The notes beneath the pieces are model-generated. The model was not told the origin of the DNA and ran no database searches. It saw nothing but the letters and a program-made list of their open reading frames with translations. A stretch of DNA of 62,651 nucleotides, counting the filler, from Asterionella formosa (taxonomy: Eukaryota), in assembly GCA_002256025.1 (NCBI GenBank). It is 2 parts of 2 records of this genome, joined end to end, with 100 filler letters (N's around TTAATTAATTAA, not from the genome) between each part and the next. Parts side by side here need not be neighbours in the genome. Positions count along the whole stretch, not along the records: positions 31,391 to 62,651 come from NKIB01000728.1; 1 more part is not named here. One strand, given 5' to 3'. The position numbers and the translations under genes were made by a program. Below are positions 7,137 to 50,113 of this stretch, piece after piece (position 1 is the stretch's first letter; the number at the start of each line of letters is the position of its first letter).

Positions 7137-8306
7137 ATGATGCCTTCTCTGTGGTTAGATCGTCCTGATGAGCGCGCTGTTGCCCTCCTCAATTTCCAGC
7201 GTGATACTGCTGTTAACTTGAACCCTGCCGTTGCGGCCGCAATTCTCAATGAGGGACCGACTGTGTCGATCAACGGCTCGTGGCATCCTTCGCTACGACC
7301 AAACGAACTCCAGCGCAATTCCACATCTTATCCAGAATCGTCCAATTCGAACCCCGAACTTATGGCCGCTCTTGCCCTTGATACTTATTTTTCAAATCAT
7401 CCCCTCAATGCAATCTCCATGTCAAGGGCACTGCAGAGTCACTCGACTTCCCCTTTCGTGAATTCTCTCTTTCCTTTTTCATCAATTCCTCGACTTGGCG
7501 AGCTCTCATCCCAATCACGGAGCTTTGACGTTTCAAGTTTGTTACAGAATGATTCCTTTCTAGAGGTTTCAAATGCCGTTCAGCATGAAGCAACAGTATC
7601 AAAGGCTTTTCAAAGAGGCCGTGAAGAAGCCATTTTGTCCTTACTTCGCTTTGTCAAGCCACAAGCCCCTTCCGTCAATCACACAGCTGCAACTGTTGGA
7701 GGTGTGGCTCATGAAGCGGCTGATCTTGCAAGCGCGAAGGTCCCTACTGATAGTGTGCTTAAGATACTTGGTCTTGACACTCGAAGAAAGTCGAAAGCAT
7801 CTTACATTGATGCTTCCTCCCTCGATGACCCTGATGAAGCAACCTTGTCCAAGCGTCGCACAAGAGGAGGAGTCATTGAGCCCTTCCCAGAGAAGCTTCA
7901 CCGCATGCTCCGCGAATCTGTCGAGAACGGGGATACTGAAGTCATTTCTTTCTACCCTCATGGGCGCGCCTTTGGTATTCATCACCAAGGTCGTTTCTGT
8001 CGCGAGATCATGCCCAAGTACTTCCGGCAATCTCGATTGTCGTCGTTTCAGCGACAGTTGAATCTATACGGATTTCAAAGAATCTCCTCTGGACCTGACT
8101 GCGGAGGATATTATCACGAACTATTCCTGATGGGAAGACCGGCCTTGTGCCTTCACATGCGACGTGTGAGCACTTCTCAAGTTACCGCCAAGGGGGTCAC
8201 TCATGAACCAAAGTCTAGTGTTCCCTCTGGTGCGTCGCCTGACTTTTACTCTATGTCGCCTATCAAAGGAGGCAAGGCGGCAAGTTCTGTAGATGCACGT
8301 TATTGA
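7137..8306 (+). CDS. Heat shock factor-family transcription factor (diatom type, C-terminal HSF DNA-binding domain)
   Basis: GGVIEPFPEKLHRML...PHGRAF...MPKYFRQSRLSSFQRQLNLYGF...YYHELF; first in-frame ATG at 7137. Confidence 0.92.
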   Translation: MMPSLWLDRPDERAVALLNFQRDTAVNLNPAVAAAILNEGPTVSINGSWHPSLRPNELQRNSTSYPESSNSNPELMAALALDTYFSNHPLNAISMSRALQSHSTSPFVNSLFPFSSIPRLGELSSQSRSFDVSSLLQNDSFLEVSNAVQHEATVSKAFQRGREEAILSLLRFVKPQAPSVNHTAATVGGVAHEAADLASAKVPTDSVLKILGLDTRRKSKASYIDASSLDDPDEATLSKRRTRGGVIEPFPEKLHRMLRESVENGDTEVISFYPHGRAFGIHHQGRFCREIMPKYFRQSRLSSFQRQLNLYGFQRISSGPDCGGYYHELFLMGRPALCLHMRRVSTSQVTAKGVTHEPKSSVPSGASPDFYSMSPIKGGKAASSVDARY

Positions 8307-31290: not shown

Positions 31291-31390
31291 NNNNNNNNNN
31301 NNNNNNNNNNNNNNNNNNNNNNNNNNNNNNNNNNTTAATTAATTAANNNNNNNNNNNNNNNNNNNNNNNNNNNNNNNNNNNNNNNNNNNN
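31291..31390. other. Artificial contig-joining linker (N44-TTAATTAATTAA-N44)
   Basis: Symmetric 100-nt spacer with stop codons in all six frames. Confidence 0.95.
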
Positions 31391-38183: not shown

Positions 38184-39317
38184 CCAACAAGGATGATTTA
38201 TTGCCAGTTTTAGACAAGACCAAAGTTGGATTATTTTGGCGCTGTCAAGAGCGACAATCGATAGCGATGTGCGAGTTTCATCAAGGCAGCATTGTTCCTC
38301 ATGTACCGTGAGGTGTCATCATTGGCAGACTGCTGCATGTCCCTGGCTAGTATTGATATCTCCTTCCATTACCTGCAGATCAACATTATACTCAAGTTTG
38401 CTCAGCATTATATGATGTTATGCCATGGGTATATTGTGTAACATTTTACAGTGTCGATGGTCAATTAATCAGCTGAAGGATTAAAAAAATCCAAGAGAGT
38501 TGCGCCAGTTAACGAAGGGCTTCATGCCAATAAAGGCAATGTCATTTAAGGAAGAAAGTGAAGGAGGGATTAGGTGTGATCCAATTGCATCTCAAAAATT
38601 CAAGTGCTTCCAGTACTCCACTGTCCCACCTGTCATCCACCACTGATGATTTTGATGTAATAGATGATTCGAAATGAAGAAAAATAATATAGATTACCTG
38701 TAGATGCTAGTATGATTGATTAGAAAGCTATCACTCTTTCTAATTGGAAAAACGGAAGGGTTTTTCTGTTCTAGAATACCAATATACAAATGCAAAGTCA
38801 TATTAGTTTTTGATGGGCAGTTTAAAAAGGCGTAGTACTAGCTGCGTAAGAAGAAGGAGTTTACAGGACATATGATGCTACTAATATTCAAAAAACTACA
38901 GGTACAGACTAGCCAAGCAACTTCCTTTGATCCTCCGCCTCCTCCTTTGGTTGCCTTTTCTAGTTTCTTCCTGTATATGTACAACCGGGATGTACGGAAG
39001 TGTAGGAGCGGTCTTCATCTGATGAGTCGCTATTGTTGCTCATTTCATCAGGCAGATATGTATGAGTATGCAGGTCCCATCATTTTCTTAGTGGTAGTAA
39101 TCGGGTTTATAATGATACACATGTAAGAACATTCTAGTGCTATTTCTATTCGCTAAAAGTTTCGGTGCGAGATTTGACTATTCTAGGATTTGGTCGATGC
39201 GGTGGGAAAAAACATGAAAATTCGACTATTGATAAAAAATTCTCGACCAAGTGACGTGTATTGATATTTTCAACTGGTATTAGCTTTGGTATTTGGTCGA
39301 TACGGTGGAGATGCTCT

Positions 39318-39481
39318 TGTTAATATCTGCATATGCTCCATACATGCGCCATACGAACCATGCCGGCGCAGCCACCAGATTAGGTACATGTTTGAGTGCT
39401 AACAACGATGTATTCGAAACAGCAATAGAATAGTCCTAATATTGTAGTTCACCTTTATTCATGACAAGGTTCCCCTCAACA
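39318..39481 (+). repeat. 5' LTR (164 bp)
   Basis: TGTTAAT...CCCTCAACA; about 8 substitutions and 2 indels versus the 3' LTR. Confidence 0.95.
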
Positions 39482-39628
39482 GAACTACAATATCTGTTCT
39501 CTCTCCCTTGTCCGCACCTGTGACGTTGCGGCTTTTGTCGGCAGTGCAAACCAGCACAGTTCTCAACAATCAACTGTACAACAACGCTTGCCCATTCACT
39601 TTCCCTGTCTCTCGGGCCTTCTTCCACC

Positions 39629-40717
39629 ATGATGAATCCACTCGTTTCCGCTGTTTTCCCATTCCCTCATCCGCTCTTGACGCCGATCGAGGGCAAACCT
39701 ACAGCCCTCACTGTAACCCGCCTTCGCAAGGAACTCTTTGCCAACGCTCGCTCTGTCCACTGTACCAGTGGTGGTGGTGCCAATGGTTTCCTTGGTATTG
39801 TCGTGGCTGCTGCTCCTTATCTTTTACGTGCTGGTGAACCCTTTTTACCGCCCGAACATCCCGGCACCCAGCCGCCACACAGTGCTACTGCAACACAGTC
39901 CCAAATCACTGCTGCCAACCGTCTCTTTGACACCTCCCTTGACGCATTACGCCGTTACTCCCAAATCCGTGAAATTCTCCGGCAAAAAATTCTAACAGCC
40001 ATTGACCCTACTTACTACAACGTTCTGGAAGATGCTACATTTGGATATGCCAACATCACTGTTCTGACCTTGCTTGCTCACTTAGAATCTACATATGCAA
40101 CGTTGAGTGCGGATGATTTAGAACTAAATCGCATGTGCTTGGCTGATGCTTGGACACCAGAGAAACCTATTGAACATTTATGGATCCGCATCAAACATCT
40201 TTGTGCCATTGCAGATGTTGGTGGGGAACCTTTATCTGACAGTACTGTCAGGCAGTTAACTCTTTCTGCTTTAGAACAGGCTGGTGTCTATTCTCATAGC
40301 ATTCAAACTTGGCGTGATCGCGCTGAGATGGACCGTACATGGGTTAATTTTTGCCTGCATTTCATGCATGCTGATAAGGAACAATTGCGCCTTGCCACTG
40401 CCACCACCGCCGGTTATCATGGTGCCCATGCTGCCATTCAAACCAGTGGCTCTCCCCCACTGCCAGGAATTGCTGCAGCTGCTCCTGCTGTCCCTTCTGG
40501 ATACACTTACAACAATGTCCAATTAGGCTATTGTTGGACTCATGGTCTCACCAAAAACCCTGACCATACCAGTGCAACTTGTAATCATCCATCTTCTGGC
40601 CATCATATCACTGCCACCCTTGATCGACATATGGGTGGCAGCGTCCGTATTTTCAGTGATGGTACCCATCCCACCCGGCCACCCTGTGTTTCACCGCCAC
40701 CTTCACCACTTGCTTGA
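39629..40717 (+). CDS. Copia gag
   Basis: LTPIEGKPT, GGGANGFLG, GYCWTHG...HTSATC...GH...MGGS. Confidence 0.88.
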   Translation: MMNPLVSAVFPFPHPLLTPIEGKPTALTVTRLRKELFANARSVHCTSGGGANGFLGIVVAAAPYLLRAGEPFLPPEHPGTQPPHSATATQSQITAANRLFDTSLDALRRYSQIREILRQKILTAIDPTYYNVLEDATFGYANITVLTLLAHLESTYATLSADDLELNRMCLADAWTPEKPIEHLWIRIKHLCAIADVGGEPLSDSTVRQLTLSALEQAGVYSHSIQTWRDRAEMDRTWVNFCLHFMHADKEQLRLATATTAGYHGAHAAIQTSGSPPLPGIAAAAPAVPSGYTYNNVQLGYCWTHGLTKNPDHTSATCNHPSSGHHITATLDRHMGGSVRIFSDGTHPTRPPCVSPPPSPLA

Positions 40718-43700
40718 TGTGGAGGGGAGCAAGTTGCGTCGATAATACTATTACCACAAACTTATCTCCCATCACTTGTCCCCCTGTCACACTCATTGCT
40801 GATTCTGGTAGTTCTGGAAATTACGCCACTGTTGATTTACCTGTCATCAACAAACGACCTAGTACCACCAACCCTACTATCACCATTCAACTTCCTAACG
40901 GCAACCATGTTAAATCTACACATCAGGCCGAATTATCTTTACCTATGCTATTACCCGCTGCTCATCATGTACACATTGTCCCTGGTCTGCATAATTGCTC
41001 TTTATTGAGCATTGGACAACTATGTGACTCCGGCTACAAGGTACTCTTCACCAAATTGCACATGTCTGTCTTATCTGATGGTCATTGCATCCTTCAGGGC
41101 CATCGCTCCACCACCACTCGATTATGGCATGTCACCACCGCCACTATTGATCCACCATTGCCTACCCCTAAACACTACGGTGCTACCGCCATTGGCAGTC
41201 CCACTGCACCAGCCCTTGTTGCCTTTGCCCATGCGGCCCTCTTTTCTCTTGTTATCTCTGCTTTGGAAAGCGCATTACGTCATGGGTATCTTGTCAATTT
41301 TCCAGGTCTAACCTTAACTGAAACACTACGCAAACATCCCCCGCATTCCATCGCAATCATCAAAGGCCACCTCGATCAAACACGTCAAAACGTACGGTCC
41401 ACATGTGTGCCCCCAACTATCATTGAGCCTGACCTTTCATCTATTCCTACAAATGTGCTGGGTGATGCCGATTTCCACCCTGAGGGTCTTGCAACCCCTA
41501 CCCATATGTGTTTTGCGTCCATTATTGCACCCACAGGCCAAATTTACACCGATCAAACCGGAAAACTCATACTCCCCTCCCACTGGAAACAACTACATTA
41601 TGATTTTATATGATTATGACAGCAACTACATTTTCGTTCAGCCCTTTCATAACCGAACCGCTTCCTGCCTCCTTGCAGCATATAAAACATTACATCAACG
41701 TTTGTACAAAGCTGGCCTACGTCCCAAACTTCAAAGCCTTGACAACGAGTGTTCTACACTCCTCAAAGAGTTCTTGCTCGCCGAAGCTATTGACTTTCAG
41801 TTGGTCCCGCCAGCTGTCCATCGTCGCAATGCTGTTGAACGTGCAATTCGCACCTTTCAAAACCATTTCATCGCCGGTCTATGCAGTGTCGACAAAGACT
41901 TTCCTCTCCACTTGCGGGACTAACTATTAGTTCAAGCTGAACTTACTTTTAATCTCCTCCGTGGCTCACACATCAACCCCGAACTGTCTGCTTGGGCACA
42001 GGTCAATGGAACATATGATTACAACCGTGTCCCCTTGCTCCACCTGGCTGTCGGGTCCTTATTCATGCCAAGCCCCAACACTGCACAACATGGGCTCCAC
42101 ATGCTCTCGACGGCTGGTATGTCGGCCTTGCTGTGGATTCCTATCACTGCTACCGCATCTGGATGTGGGACACATGTTCCATCAGAATTTGCAATACTGT
42201 CTCGTGGTTTCCAACCAAAATCCACCTACCCTGTAATTCATCCACTGACCTCATCACAACCAGTTTGCAGGACATTGCCTTTGCCTTGTAGCATCCCACC
42301 ACTCGGTCTCCCGTTGCCCCACTCACTGCAACCCACAAAGCTGCTCTCCAGCAGCTCCTTGAAATTCTCTCACTGCCTGAGCTCACCTAACTACCCATCG
42401 CTCCCCTCCTGAATAGCCCCATTCCATCACTGAGGGTGCCGGGACGCCCACAGCATCCACCATCCACCTTATCCCTGATCCTGATCCTGATGCCTGTACA
42501 CCTTTCCCGGTCTCTCCAGCCCTCGAAGGCACTGCCCAACCACTGAGGGTGCTTAACCCTAACCCTAACCCTACCCCTACCGACCCGAGTGTTGTTAACC
42601 CTACCCCTAACCCTAACCGTCACGTCGCTGGCATTCCTAAACCTAACCCTACCCCTAGGTCCCCTCCTGCCAGTGGCCGCAAGATCATTCCAGCACCCCC
42701 TCGCACCTATCGCGATCCTGTTGTGCTGCCCAGTCCCCTGCCACCTTCCCCTCCGGTCACTTATGAAACTACCACTGCACTCAAGAGCCGTCGTCACCAT
42801 AAAACCACACCACGTAAAGCACCACATGCCAGCTGTCCCCACACCCAATCTTTGCTTGACAACTGTGCTCTCTCAGCCCCTCCTCAAACCAGTGCTACTC
42901 CCCTGGCCACTAATTTTTGTTTCCATGGCACCGCTATCAACCTTGACAATGGCAAAATTGCTGGATATAGAGAATTATTGACTTGCAGCACTGCTCCCCT
43001 GTGGGCCACTGCCAACGGCTTAGAAATTGGCCGGTTATTTCAGGGCTTGGGACCCCATTCTGACATGCCCACGGGTACTAATTGCTGTTCTTTCATTAAT
43101 AAGCATGCGATGCCCTCACACAAACGCGCCACTTACATCCGCATAGTGTGTGCCGATCACCCCGAAAAAACCATTCCCCAACGCGTTTGTTGGACTGCTG
43201 GGGGTGATCGTGAAATTTACACCAGCAATGTCAGCACCAAGACTGCTGATCTCACTACTGCAAAATGTTTGTACAACAGCACCATCAGTACCCCCAATGG
43301 CCGCTTCATGACTCTGGATTTATCTGATTTTTATCTGGAAAGTCATCTTGCACCTACCGAGTATGAATACGTTCGCATCCCTATATGGATGATCCCCCCA
43401 CACATTCAAACCCTCTACAACCTAGCTCCCAAAATCATTGATGGGCACATATACGCAGAAGTCCGTCGTGGCATGTATGGGCTGCCTCAGGCTGGTAAAC
43501 TTGCCAATGATCAATTTGCGCAGTTCTTGCTCCCACATCATTACCTCCCCTGCCCAGTCACCCCTGGCCTATGGATGGATACCACCAGTGATCTCATGCT
43601 TATGCTTGTTGTTGATGATTTTGGTGTACGTTACACCAAACGTAGTGACATGGACCGTCTCCTCACCACTTTACGCACCAAAGACTGTCTCACAACTGAT

Positions 43701-44600
43701 TGGACTGGCTCTCGTTACATTGGCCTTTCGCTGACGTGGGACTACAAACATTGCACCGTTGACCTCACTATGCCTGGTTACATTGTTCGTGCTCTACAAC
43801 GATTCACATACTCCACCCCAACACACCCACAACATGCCCCCCGCGCCTGGACTGCACCTAGTTATGGCGCTCGCCAGCAATTTGTTGTTCCTGATGTCAC
43901 TCCTGTCCTTGACCTCCATGATAAAACACGTGTGCAGGAGATTCTTGGTACTTTATTGTATTATGCCTGTGCTATTGACTATACTATGTTGCCGGCCCTT
44001 GGTACATTGGCTACACAACAAGCAACCCCCACTGTGGCTACCTTGACTGCTATTACTCACCTTCTCAATTATTGTGCCACTCATCCTGAAGCCACACTTT
44101 GCTTTACTGCCAGTGACATCATGGTCCTCCATGTTGAAAGCGATGCACGTGGTCACTCCCACGCTGCCGGCATTCACTTTCTCGGCTGTAAACCCCTGCC
44201 TCCGCCTAGCCTCACTTCGTCCATCCCTCCTGTTAACGGTGCTATTTACGTCCACTGTCAAATTCTTAAGGAGGTTTTATCAAATGCTGCTGAGGCCAAA
44301 TTAGCTGCTTTGTTCCACAATGGCAAAGAGGCATATGCTATTTGCAACATTCTTGCTGAGCTTGGTCATCCCCAACCGTCTACCCATATTGTCACCAATA
44401 ATAGCACTGCCAGTGGCATCGCCAATGATACCGTCCAACAAAAATGCTCCAAAGCTATGGATATGTGTTATTACTGGGTACACGATCGGGTTTGCCAAGG
44501 CCAATTTCTTGTATACTGGGAAAAAGGCAGTTTGAATTGCTTGTGCTGATTATTTCACTAAACATCATCCCGCTTCCCATCATACTTTGATGCGCCCACA
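40714..44600 (+). pseudogene. Copia pol (PR-INT-RT-RH) broken by frameshifts and stops
   Basis: ORF pieces 40714-41613, 41405-41923 and 42549-44549 carry successive pol motifs in different frames. Confidence 0.9.
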
Positions 44601-44746
44601 CTATCTCCATTGCCCTCCATCCCTCCCTAGTCCTCCAAACTATTATGCATGCTTGGCTTCGGATGCTGCTATCATCTCCGCCTCGGATGCTGCTATCATT
44701 TCCGCCCCAGTTCCTGTTCTTCTGCCTGAATCTGGTGTTGAGGGTG

Positions 44747-44914
44747 TGTTAATATCTGCATATGATGCTCCATACATGCGCCGTATGAACCATGCCGGCG
44801 CAGCCACCAGATTAAGGTACATGCGTGAGTGCTAACAACAATTTATTCGAAACAGCAATAGAATAGTCATAATATTGTAGTTCACCTTTATTCACGACAA
44901 GGTTCCCCTCAACA
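44747..44914 (+). repeat. 3' LTR (168 bp) preceded by a short PPT-like GAGGGTG
   Basis: Direct repeat of 39318-39481. Confidence 0.95.
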
Positions 44915-46909: not shown

Positions 46910-48249
46910 AACAATGGTTATTGTAGTAAAGCAGTATTAATAACCTGGTTATTATTCCGGTATACCAAGTCAGAAACACTGTACATCAGTATAAACCAGA
47001 TTGTCACTCACCATTATAGTCTTACCGGTACTACCATTTCCAGTAAGTTAAATCCAATATTGTAGTTATCCTATCTTCCATTAAAATCGCAAAACAATCG
47101 TCCCAATCCATTCCTCCTGCTCCAAAGTTGTCATCATTGTGATTGTGGTCATGCTTGACTGCTATTACCACCAGACACTGCAGCCCGCCAAGGCATAAAT
47201 TCATGCCTTGTATCATTCTTCATTGTGGATTCTTTTTAGCAGGAGTGCGATGAGCCTTGGCTTTTCGGATACTGAGCAGCATTGTTCCAACATTTGTAGT
47301 ATTGCCATGGGTGCTTTCCCTGGTGTGCAGAGATTCCTGACATTGCACAAGCATCTCTTCCCAATCAGATAGCTATCACAAAGGGCTATTTTTGAGTGCT
47401 TCTTTTGATTGAATTTGACCATGCAACTTTCTGGTAACATGGACTTTAGATGCTCCTTCATTTTATAATGCAACCTTAGCTAAAGAAGATTTGTGAATAT
47501 TGAATTTTGTAGTTACCTTCAGAAGGAAAGGGAATAAATTTCCGAGAGTTAATGAAGTGTCTGGAAATGTCAGGGGCTCTCTCTGGTGGAATCTTGGCAT
47601 ATGAAGTTTTTCAGTGGATAGGTTCAATCAATTATATAATGGAAGATGATATAATGCTTCAGATTTAAAAAGGTATTTCTGTTAAACTTGTCCTTTCTGC
47701 CAGACACTTTTTTTCACCAAAAACTTTCCTTTCCTTGACATTGGCTAACAACAGATTGTGGATTAAGTCGGTTCAGATCAGGCAACTTGGTCGCTTATCA
47801 GGAACTCTTTCTGTACAAAGAGGAAACTTGCCAAATGCCACATGCAGATGACAAATGGGGCAATGTTGTTGGTTGCCTATGGCCCATTCATTGACAAAAT
47901 GAAGATCTCGGACCCCACATCACATGACAATGTGATCCACTTTTGGAAAATGTTGACAATGGTCATTCCCGGTTTTTTTACACAGATCCCATTTGCAGCA
48001 GGTAGTGCAACCAATGTCAGCAAGGGTATGCTACTTACCTGTACATTGTTGCACACTCATGTCAATTTGTCAACACAATTTTTACACAGGTAAATATCGA
48101 ATCAGTATACTAAGCATGTATATTAAGTAAACAATGCGCCTATGGGGTCTCCTATGCAGCATGCTGGTGATAGGACAGACATCCCTCCTCACCATGGCGG
48201 AAGACCCGTTTTTCACGACCATCCTTGCAGCAGGCATGAACTTAACAAT

Positions 48250-49439: not shown

Positions 49440-50113
49440 GGGGGGGGGGGGGGGGGGGGGGGGGGGTGGGGGGGGGGGGGGGGGGGGTGGGGGGGNNNNN
49501 NNNNAATTGGGGCCTATCAAATCCCCCCCCCCCCCACATGTCTGCAAATGAAAAAGTATCATGCATATAGGATCAAGGGTATCGTACGCTAAGTGGCATA
49601 GGATTTTCGTAAATATGATAATTTTTCGATCAAAAATATGATCAAGGTATCTTGTAACTATGATGATTTATTAATATGTTACCGACCTTGAAGTATAATG
49701 ATAATAAGAGCATTATCATCACACAATGTATATAAACTGATCCACAACATTTTTCATCAATATCATAAACCTTCTCATATTATTTTCACTTCTCGTGATC
49801 GCCCGATGTAAATTATAACTACAATGCATCCTAAAATCAGCTAAACTATATACTATCATTTGAATTGTTTCATCATATAACTATCTTAAATATGATCCTA
49901 TTTCTAATTACAAAGATTGTTAAAAAAGGATTGAAATGTATTGTAATTTAATTGACAAATTTAGCAATGCTATCTATGATTCTACAGGCCAGCGACCCAA
50001 CGTTTCTCTCTCTACTTGGCTCAATGTATATTGTTCCTGTCTCGCCCTTTCCTTCCCCTATTCTGAATCTTGCGCCATGCAGTGCTTAATGTCTCGCAAT
50101 TCTCCCTGCATTT

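Follow-up and report, generated by a model that had tools for sequence, protein, structure and literature searches.

A covarying inverted repeat across the LTR/internal junction points to Tf1-like self-priming in a clade of diatom Copia retrotransposons

A stretch of Asterionella formosa DNA of 62,651 nucleotides, filler included (assembly GCA_002256025.1; hereafter the window), carries a Ty1/copia-type LTR retrotransposon in which the first bases past the 5' LTR are the reverse complement of a segment inside that LTR. Complementary arms of this kind recur in related elements, and their exact position, their conservation across the clade with compensatory changes, a motif upstream of the LTR arm and a constant spacing between this motif and the arm are all directly observed. 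We consider it probable, at roughly 0.78, that the minus-strand DNA of this diatom Copia clade is self-primed in a Tf1-like manner. A preliminary description of the window element had proposed that its lineage self-primes, and this reading finds support at the comparative level in a clade-wide covarying pair whose 3' arm abuts the LTR.

The window element, a Ty1/copia-type LTR retrotransposon of a diatom-like host, lies on the plus strand, as do its parts given below. It is delimited by a direct repeat consisting of a 5' LTR of 164 nt (39318-39481), which begins TGTTAAT and closes with CCTCAACA (ending CAACA), and a 3' LTR (44747-44914). These are the only two copies within the window and are 92.9% identical. 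The LTR ends, TGTTA...CAACA, are of the TG...CA type, and the flanks, GCTCT and GCTTC, agree at three of five positions, this being an old copy; together with a clean 5-bp target duplication in a relative (CTCCT in L032, see below), these ends are those of a Ty1/copia element. Three contigs from RNA run X1 diverge from the window sequence just 3' of 39481. Past the 3' LTR the host flank comes next, without a complementary arm.

Between the LTRs, a gag-like ORF (39629-40717; 362 aa from the ATG) has a C-x2-H...C-type motif close to its end and yielded no match in a Pfam search. It is followed by protease (DSGSS motif) and integrase pieces spread over several frames of the translations (40660-42412) and by a reverse transcriptase (RT; LVVDDF) with RNase H (42984-44549), whose ORF continues towards a putative polypurine tract (PPT). 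The order of Pol motifs in the translations is DSGSS (ORF 40660-41613), an integrase-like D..DSN..E (41318-41923) and the LVVDDF RT (42417-44549), i.e., the order protease, integrase, reverse transcriptase and RNase H characteristic of Ty1/copia elements. A tblastn search with the relative P0020 matched the window at 40945-41580, 41582-42097 and 42001-42420 in differing frames. The purine-rich tract GGTGTTGAGGGTG (44734-44746), the putative PPT, lies directly 5' of the 3' LTR and overlaps the polyprotein C terminus (...GEGVL). Thus, at 44734-44753, GAGGGTG|TGTTA combines the purine-rich tract with the first bases of the 3' LTR and encodes the conserved ...GEGVL, and this overlap of coding sequence, PPT and LTR start is seen in the window and in most of the 80 related loci described below (L001-L080).

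The assignment to Copia rests on relatives because the window's own ORFs barely match Pfam: at an E value of 0.001 they gave no match, and the window RT matched RVT_2 (PF07727) weakly (E 0.01; 15.9 bits, under the cut-off of 31.6). That cut-off is exceeded by two full-length relatives, P0020 (34.3 bits) and P0057 (34.0 bits). In P0020, a match to SH3_retrovirus, the integrase C-terminal domain, at 365-421 (E 0.00045, under the curated cut-off) has RVT_2 (768-951) C terminal to it. At E <= 0.001, a search with the RT region gave 2456 homologues, many of them with a precomputed PF07727; those that bear names are from the diatoms Fragilaria crotonensis, Cylindrotheca closterium and Nitzschia inconspicua. 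Two close RT homologues, P0010 and P0103, carry the source labels Marinobacter shengliensis and Actinobacteria MAG; in both cases a eukaryotic contig has most likely been binned, or deposited, among bacterial sequences.

Within its group the window copy is old and dead: its LTRs have diverged by 7%, its frames are broken, and the initiator-like motif in the 5' LTR is mutated. Some further features of the locus deserve mention. A three-copy direct repeat rich in CCCTAA/CCCTAC and telomere-repeat-like in appearance (42545-42664) lies within the polyprotein frame in the interval between integrase and RT, where it translates as a Pro/Asn/Thr-rich linker; positions 42547-42587 were skipped as repeat when RNA-run contigs were mapped. 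In the 5' flank (39200-39317), the summed contig depth in RNA run X1 is very high (980 in the first bin), and at 39318 contigs from run X5 part from the window; the insertion site of the element seems to have been in a different repeat. Three runs of N (31291-31334, 31347-31390 and 49496-49504; 97 bases in total) all lie outside the element.

In the window copy, the LTR arm, ATATTGTAGTTC (39439-39450), which would form the 3' part of a putative self-primer, has its exact reverse complement in GAACTACAATAT (39482-39493), the 12 nt directly 3' of the LTR. The latter arm, which lacks a TGG start, thus holds the primer-binding-site (PBS) position, and the two are separated by a 31-nt loop made up of the rest of R plus U5 (39451-39481). 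The preliminary description had pointed to this pair, and the match is exact as claimed; equally, ATATTGTAGTTC does recur unchanged in the 3' LTR (44872-44883). The polarity is also that required of a primer, with C39450 paired to G39482, so that extension would copy A39481 and C39480 first, i.e., the ...CA of the LTR, and regenerate the LTR end. A search of the whole window with ATATTGTAGTTC at no more than one mismatch gave four matches against 0.38 expected, a number reached by none of 100 shuffles; one of them, a one-mismatch match at 47057-47068, was rejected as part of any element. RNA folding of 39430-39510 recovers this 12-nt hairpin at -15.4 kcal/mol (z -3.05), and one of 200 shuffles folded as well. 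An Rfam search of 39250-39700 gave a single meaningless match (E 0.37, far under the gathering score) and no tRNA-like or otherwise known RNA, and ARAGORN found no tRNA gene in the whole window.

The earlier claim of a second stem within the loop fared less evenly. ACCTT (39451-39455) and AAGGT (39466-39470) do form a local stem in the window, and among relatives it is kept only in L001, L002 and L003. In a 12-family alignment (A4, described below), only 46.7% of the cells of this inner stem are paired, and RNAalifold does not predict it. When the loops of 33 distinct hairpins from relatives were folded, the mean z was -0.49, with only 4 of the 33 under -1.5. On these three grounds the inner stem was rejected as a general feature comparable to the U5-IR of Tf1.

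To sample relatives, 29 homologues were aligned with the window RT (A1), and a metagenome collection was scanned. Relatives are encoded by 506 of 597 stretches; the best 80 (L001-L080; RT identity 40-90%) were kept, and the loci sampled come from marine, estuarine and freshwater metagenomes. The closest, L001, is 90% identical in RT (tblastn) and 90% identical at the nucleotide level in the LTR region, and its arms are the same as those of the window. Many of the metagenome contigs, including L001, L004, L006, L013, L015, L025, L058, L063 and L071, are circularly permuted, their ends overlapping by 64-127 nt or more, and in this they mimic circular genomes. This is what the collapse of two LTRs in assembly would give, and contigs so collapsed still hold an LTR followed by the internal 5' region. 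The same pattern is seen in RNA run X3, where one contig links 44783 back to 39352. We rejected the terminal repeats of the contigs as R regions or transcript ends, as their lengths (64, 77, 78, 99, 100, 111, 123, 126, 127...) are like those of assembly overlaps.

These loci were surveyed in two ways. The first survey was anchored on GGGNGTG[TC]T, which is present in most of the 80 loci shortly downstream of RT/RNase H; since the codons for ...GEGVL extend over the purine-rich tract into the beginning of the LTR, this motif marks the LTR start in most loci. A hairpin was accepted if it had perfect arms of at least 10 nt, a loop of 19-60 nt and YA directly 5' of the 3' arm. This rule was passed by 31 of 56 non-redundant LTR-start segments, against a mean of 0.4 of 56 (maximum 2) in 20 dinucleotide shuffles of the same segments and by none of 50 coding controls. 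Most of the anchored segments have a perfect inverted repeat of 9-14 nt with a loop of 19-53 nt and CA or TA abutting the 3' arm, which in the relatives begins directly after the terminal YA of the LTR.

The second survey scanned all 80 loci (386,689 nt) without an anchor. There were 55 matches on the element strand versus 6 on the opposite strand, and 46 of the 55 fall within two zones, comprising 11% of the bases, where the position of RT predicts the LTR/internal junction. The density of matches is 1.06 per kb within these zones versus 0.026 per kb outside them. A zone match, which is to say a perfect hairpin of at least 10 nt, is present in 42 of the 80 loci (the best 80 of 506), with arm sequences that vary greatly from family to family; the complementarity persists in sister families, as the self-priming reading had anticipated. 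Where the whole expected zone is available (51 loci), 32 loci have a match and 19 do not. In eight of the latter (L013, L063, L018, L029, L046, L062, L041 and L015) the arms are 9 nt long or contain one mismatch or G-U pairs, and in about 10, which may or may not hold a true LTR/internal junction, no canonical hairpin was found.

An anchor independent of the hairpin rule is provided by L032, which has two LTRs (2388-2588 and 7488-7688) flanked by the 5-bp target duplication CTCCT. There the 3' arm, GACGTTACTA, begins with the very first base past the 5' LTR. A different arrangement is seen in L078 (5876-6100 and 16-230), where the end repeat extends 18 nt beyond ...CAGTA / ...TAGTA and the post-LTR arm, GATATTAACTAAT, lies inside both repeat copies; this suggests a tandem or LTR-sharing arrangement and not a simple insertion.

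Comparison of the arms between families revealed great diversity combined with retained complementarity. L002 and L003 (approximately 60% RT identity) have the arms TATTCTAGCTC / GAGCTAGAATA, which in a plain MAFFT alignment differ from those of the window by two compensatory double changes. Other families differ widely and are still complementary within themselves, as in the pairs TCTTGCTAGAAC/GTTCTAGCAAGA, AAATTAAACACTTC/GAAGTGTTTAATTT and CTTTAGCAATGTC/GACATTGCTAAAG. In all, there are at least 33 different post-LTR arm sequences, of which none has TGG at the very start and 2 of 33 have it within the first 8 nt. In A4, a MAFFT alignment of 12 hairpin-positive families from which L077 was left out (its 3' arm being misaligned in the alignment A3), 97.9% of the cells of the outer helix are paired, against 30-38% in slid controls. 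Ten of the 12 pairs show two-sided changes and no pair a one-sided change, the covariation score was reached by none of 500 shuffles, and the unaided RNAalifold prediction is exactly this 12-bp helix. The test of covariation in sister families that the preliminary description had called for was thereby passed. The 33 hairpins underlying the pair tables and A4 were picked by a rule requiring perfect pairing, and hence these tables speak to the diversity of the arms and not to an unbiased rate of pairing, which is given by the segment survey and the 80-locus scan.

Certain positions hardly vary among the 33 hairpins, with C-G as the first pair in 30 and A-T as the fifth in 32. Directly 3' of the LTR arm the base is mostly A, and a T-rich stretch comes next (e.g., ACCTTTAT, ACCGTTAT and ATCTTT...). 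The near-fixed positions and this A/T-rich context may be a recognition context for the presumed RNase H cut.

A short motif, CATWA, precedes the LTR arm. In 30 of the 33 distinct hairpins it occurs no more than 14 nt upstream of the arm, at a distance of 1-7 nt, against a fraction of 0.018 of other LTR windows; CAT alone is present upstream in 32 of 33, against a background of 0.27, and the exception is the 5' LTR of the window itself. There the initiator-like motif has decayed to TCCTA (39434-39438), for which the 3' LTR has an intact TCATA (44867-44871) immediately before its LTR arm. CATWA fits the diatom initiator-like consensus TCAH+1W (or CAY+1A) proposed from Phaeodactylum genes (PMC4686930). 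If, as we did here, +1 is taken as the base after the CA of CATWA, transcription is predicted to start at this motif, at T39437 in the window, which gives indirect support to the start near 39439 put forward in the preliminary description. The distance from the predicted +1 to the 3' end of the arm is 13-16 nt (median 15) and the length of the perfect arm ranges from 9 to 14 nt; such a constant spacing would be expected of a primer consisting of the RNA's first ~15 nt. Eight RNA runs hold 8-18% of the sampled words and one more holds none; mapping of four runs (X1, X2, X3 and X5; 85% likeness) gave contigs with no sites at which molecules begin or end. Their joints across the LTR are of the kind that LTR collapse would give and are no proof of transcription.

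From the sequences we infer an RNA start, an RNase H cut and the priming itself. Transcription would begin at the initiator-like TCAT(+1)A within the LTR, and the first ~14-15 nt of the RNA (39437-39450 in the window) would fold back over a short R/U5 loop, of 31 nt in the window and 19-53 nt in relatives. This 5' stretch would pair with the 9-14 nt abutting the LTR (39482-39493), at the place where other Copia elements have their tRNA-binding site. The element's RNase H would then cut past the last paired base (C39450 | A39451), as in Tf1, and the freed 3'-OH would prime minus-strand DNA, the first bases of which would copy the ...CA of U5. In retroviral-type replication the primer is copied during plus-strand synthesis. 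The primer proposed here would likewise be copied back, and a change in the LTR arm would pass to the post-LTR arm. Such re-copying in each cycle would, by the general logic of retroviral replication, keep the arms perfectly complementary while they diverge between families. Counting against the scheme are the 19 loci with a whole zone and no perfect hairpin of at least 10 nt, the poor conservation of an inner stem such as Tf1 needs, and the short loop, which would leave less than 19-53 nt of R for strand transfer.

Of the alternatives, the one with most left to it is that the hairpin is a conserved RNA or DNA structure with another role and that something else primes, a reading that we hold to be improbable. 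It might serve packaging or dimerisation, mask a 5' polyadenylation signal, control translation, or assist integrase or strand transfer. Conservation and covariation prove that the pairing is selected or templated, which falls short of proving priming; according to work cited in PMC4600332, U5/leader stems near the PBS are used by retroviruses and by Tf1, and ascomycete Copia elements have a conserved hairpin of unknown role at the place of the PBS (PMC5445492). Against this, the 3' arm starts at the first post-LTR base, precisely where a primer needs its 3' end if the end of the LTR is to be regenerated; a primer, unlike these other roles, requires both the polarity and the constant 13-16 nt spacing from the motif; and no alternative TGG-type site lies past the LTR, the two hairpins with TGG within 8 nt aside.

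Ordinary priming by a tRNA or tRNA fragment, with the LTR complementarity being incidental or regulating access to the site, has very little probability left. It is how other Pseudoviridae replicate, in that the ICTV profile has a host tRNA prime pseudovirids, usually initiator tRNA-Met, with a short tRNA segment used by hemiviruses (PMC8515867). A tRNA shared within a host would, however, keep the post-LTR arm constant, whereas the sister families show paired double changes. With at least 33 different post-LTR arms, none starting with TGG and each tracking its own LTR, a single host tRNA primer is unlikely, and so is a tRNA primer for these elements on the sequence comparisons; the Rfam result for 39250-39700 also goes against it. 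From the host-tRNA priming by which the ICTV profile describes the family, the present elements differ, with no TGG-type site 3' of the LTR and a site that matches their own LTR. That descriptor concerns mechanism and is no criterion of phylogeny; the plant TAR lineage is a further exception to it.

An inverted repeat arising by chance in an AT-rich LTR, or an artefact of assembly, for which one could cite the many contigs circularly permuted by LTR collapse and the fact that the window copy is a single dead element, is refuted by the segment survey (31 versus 0.4 of 56), the strand-resolved scan and the approximately 40-fold zone enrichment over 80 independent contigs, and by the two separate LTRs with flanks that both the window and L032 possess; the relatives' hairpins, shuffle controls and positional enrichment thereby bear out the earlier estimate that the match is unlikely to be fortuitous.

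Returning to self-priming by the element's own RNA, we lean, with slightly better than even confidence, towards a more sweeping version, in which an abundant diatom Copia clade gave up tRNA priming altogether and the first ~15 nt of each family's initiator-driven RNA prime its DNA, re-templating the post-LTR site in each cycle, so that co-evolution of the arms is automatic. If this is true, self-priming is either ancient in Pseudoviridae, and common to the plant TAR lineage, or has arisen repeatedly, and the elements would not depend on tRNAs supplied by the host and would go unseen by defences directed at tRNA-type primer sites. In diatom genomes, LTR retrotransposons form a major component that is activated by stress. 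The covarying self-primer signature offers a simple diagnostic for LTR ends and the RNA start in very divergent elements, and the dozens of arm variants constitute a natural series for working out what a self-primer requires. A concrete question is also raised, namely, whether tRNA-independent priming is old in Pseudoviridae or convergent.

To our knowledge, the Tf1/sushi group of Ty3/gypsy elements is the only one in which self-priming has been shown by experiment. In Tf1, Lin and Levin are reported to have found in 1998 that a U5-IR stem-loop between primer and PBS is needed (cited in PMC4600332). The initial 11 bases in Tf1 RNA anneal to the PBS, and RNase H cleaves between bases 11 and 12 (PMC7175516); Tj1 of Schizosaccharomyces japonicus is drawn with the same self-priming layout (PMC4600332). 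The diatom elements resemble Tf1 and Tf2 of Schizosaccharomyces pombe and Tj1 in having an LTR stretch near the RNA 5' end, predicted on the diatom side, that is complementary to the post-LTR site in priming polarity (12 of 12 positions in the window) and in lacking a tRNA-type site. Where Tf1 uses 11 bases, the diatom clade has an arm of 9-14 nt that ends 13-16 nt past the predicted start; its loop is just 19-53 nt, and a U5-IR-like stem between primer and PBS is not conserved across the clade, the diatom side of this comparison being drawn from sequence. The two also differ in ancestry. Tf1, Tf2 and Tj1 are Ty3/gypsy elements with the order RT, RNase H and integrase, whereas the diatom element has protease, integrase, RT and RNase H with an RT of the RVT_2 type; the gypsy gene order and chromovirus-type RT of the Tf1/sushi group are both absent from it. 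Given this Copia gene order and RT type, it stands outside the Tf1/sushi clade, although it would work like Tf1.

Within Copia, the preliminary description had ventured that self-priming was undescribed, which is too strong. Neumann et al. 2019 cite an earlier self-priming proposal for Houba and Osr-1 (Capy 2005) and themselves predict self-priming for the plant Ty1/copia TAR lineage, including Houba and Osr-1 (PMC6317226), so that self-priming in Copia is not new as an idea; it has so far been a bioinformatic prediction for this one plant lineage, and the ICTV profile still describes Pseudoviridae as tRNA-primed (PMC8515867). The TAR lineage shares with the diatom clade its membership of the Copia superfamily, the lack of a tRNA-complementary PBS and the prediction of self-priming (PMC6317226). 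Its hosts are land plants and those of the present clade are diatoms, and the likeness noted here is one of description.

Other Copia groups offer partial parallels. CoDi elements (Copia from diatoms) are likewise Ty1/copia-type elements of diatoms, the source also of the named homologues of the window RT. Our literature searches found no link between self-priming and diatom elements, and by a term search of the CoDi paper of Maumus et al. 2009, the terms tRNA, self-, hairpin and PBS in the retroelement sense are absent from it (PMC2806351). In Drosophila copia and the hemiviruses and in the plant Osser, Bryco and Bianca lineages, which use half-tRNA priming, the Copia PBS also does not match a tRNA 3' end (PMC6317226, PMC8515867); there, however, the site matches an internal tRNA segment and is constant per lineage, whereas the diatom site varies by family and matches its own LTR. 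The conserved hairpin structure (CHS) of ascomycete Copia elements is similarly a non-tRNA structure at the expected PBS position, but by its authors' own account no complementary U5 inverted repeat was ever found (PMC5445492), while in the diatom clade the complement in the LTR is the defining feature. The case is thus best filed under a mechanism of a known kind, and what is new is the probable placement of a broad diatom Copia clade among the self-primed LTR retrotransposons.
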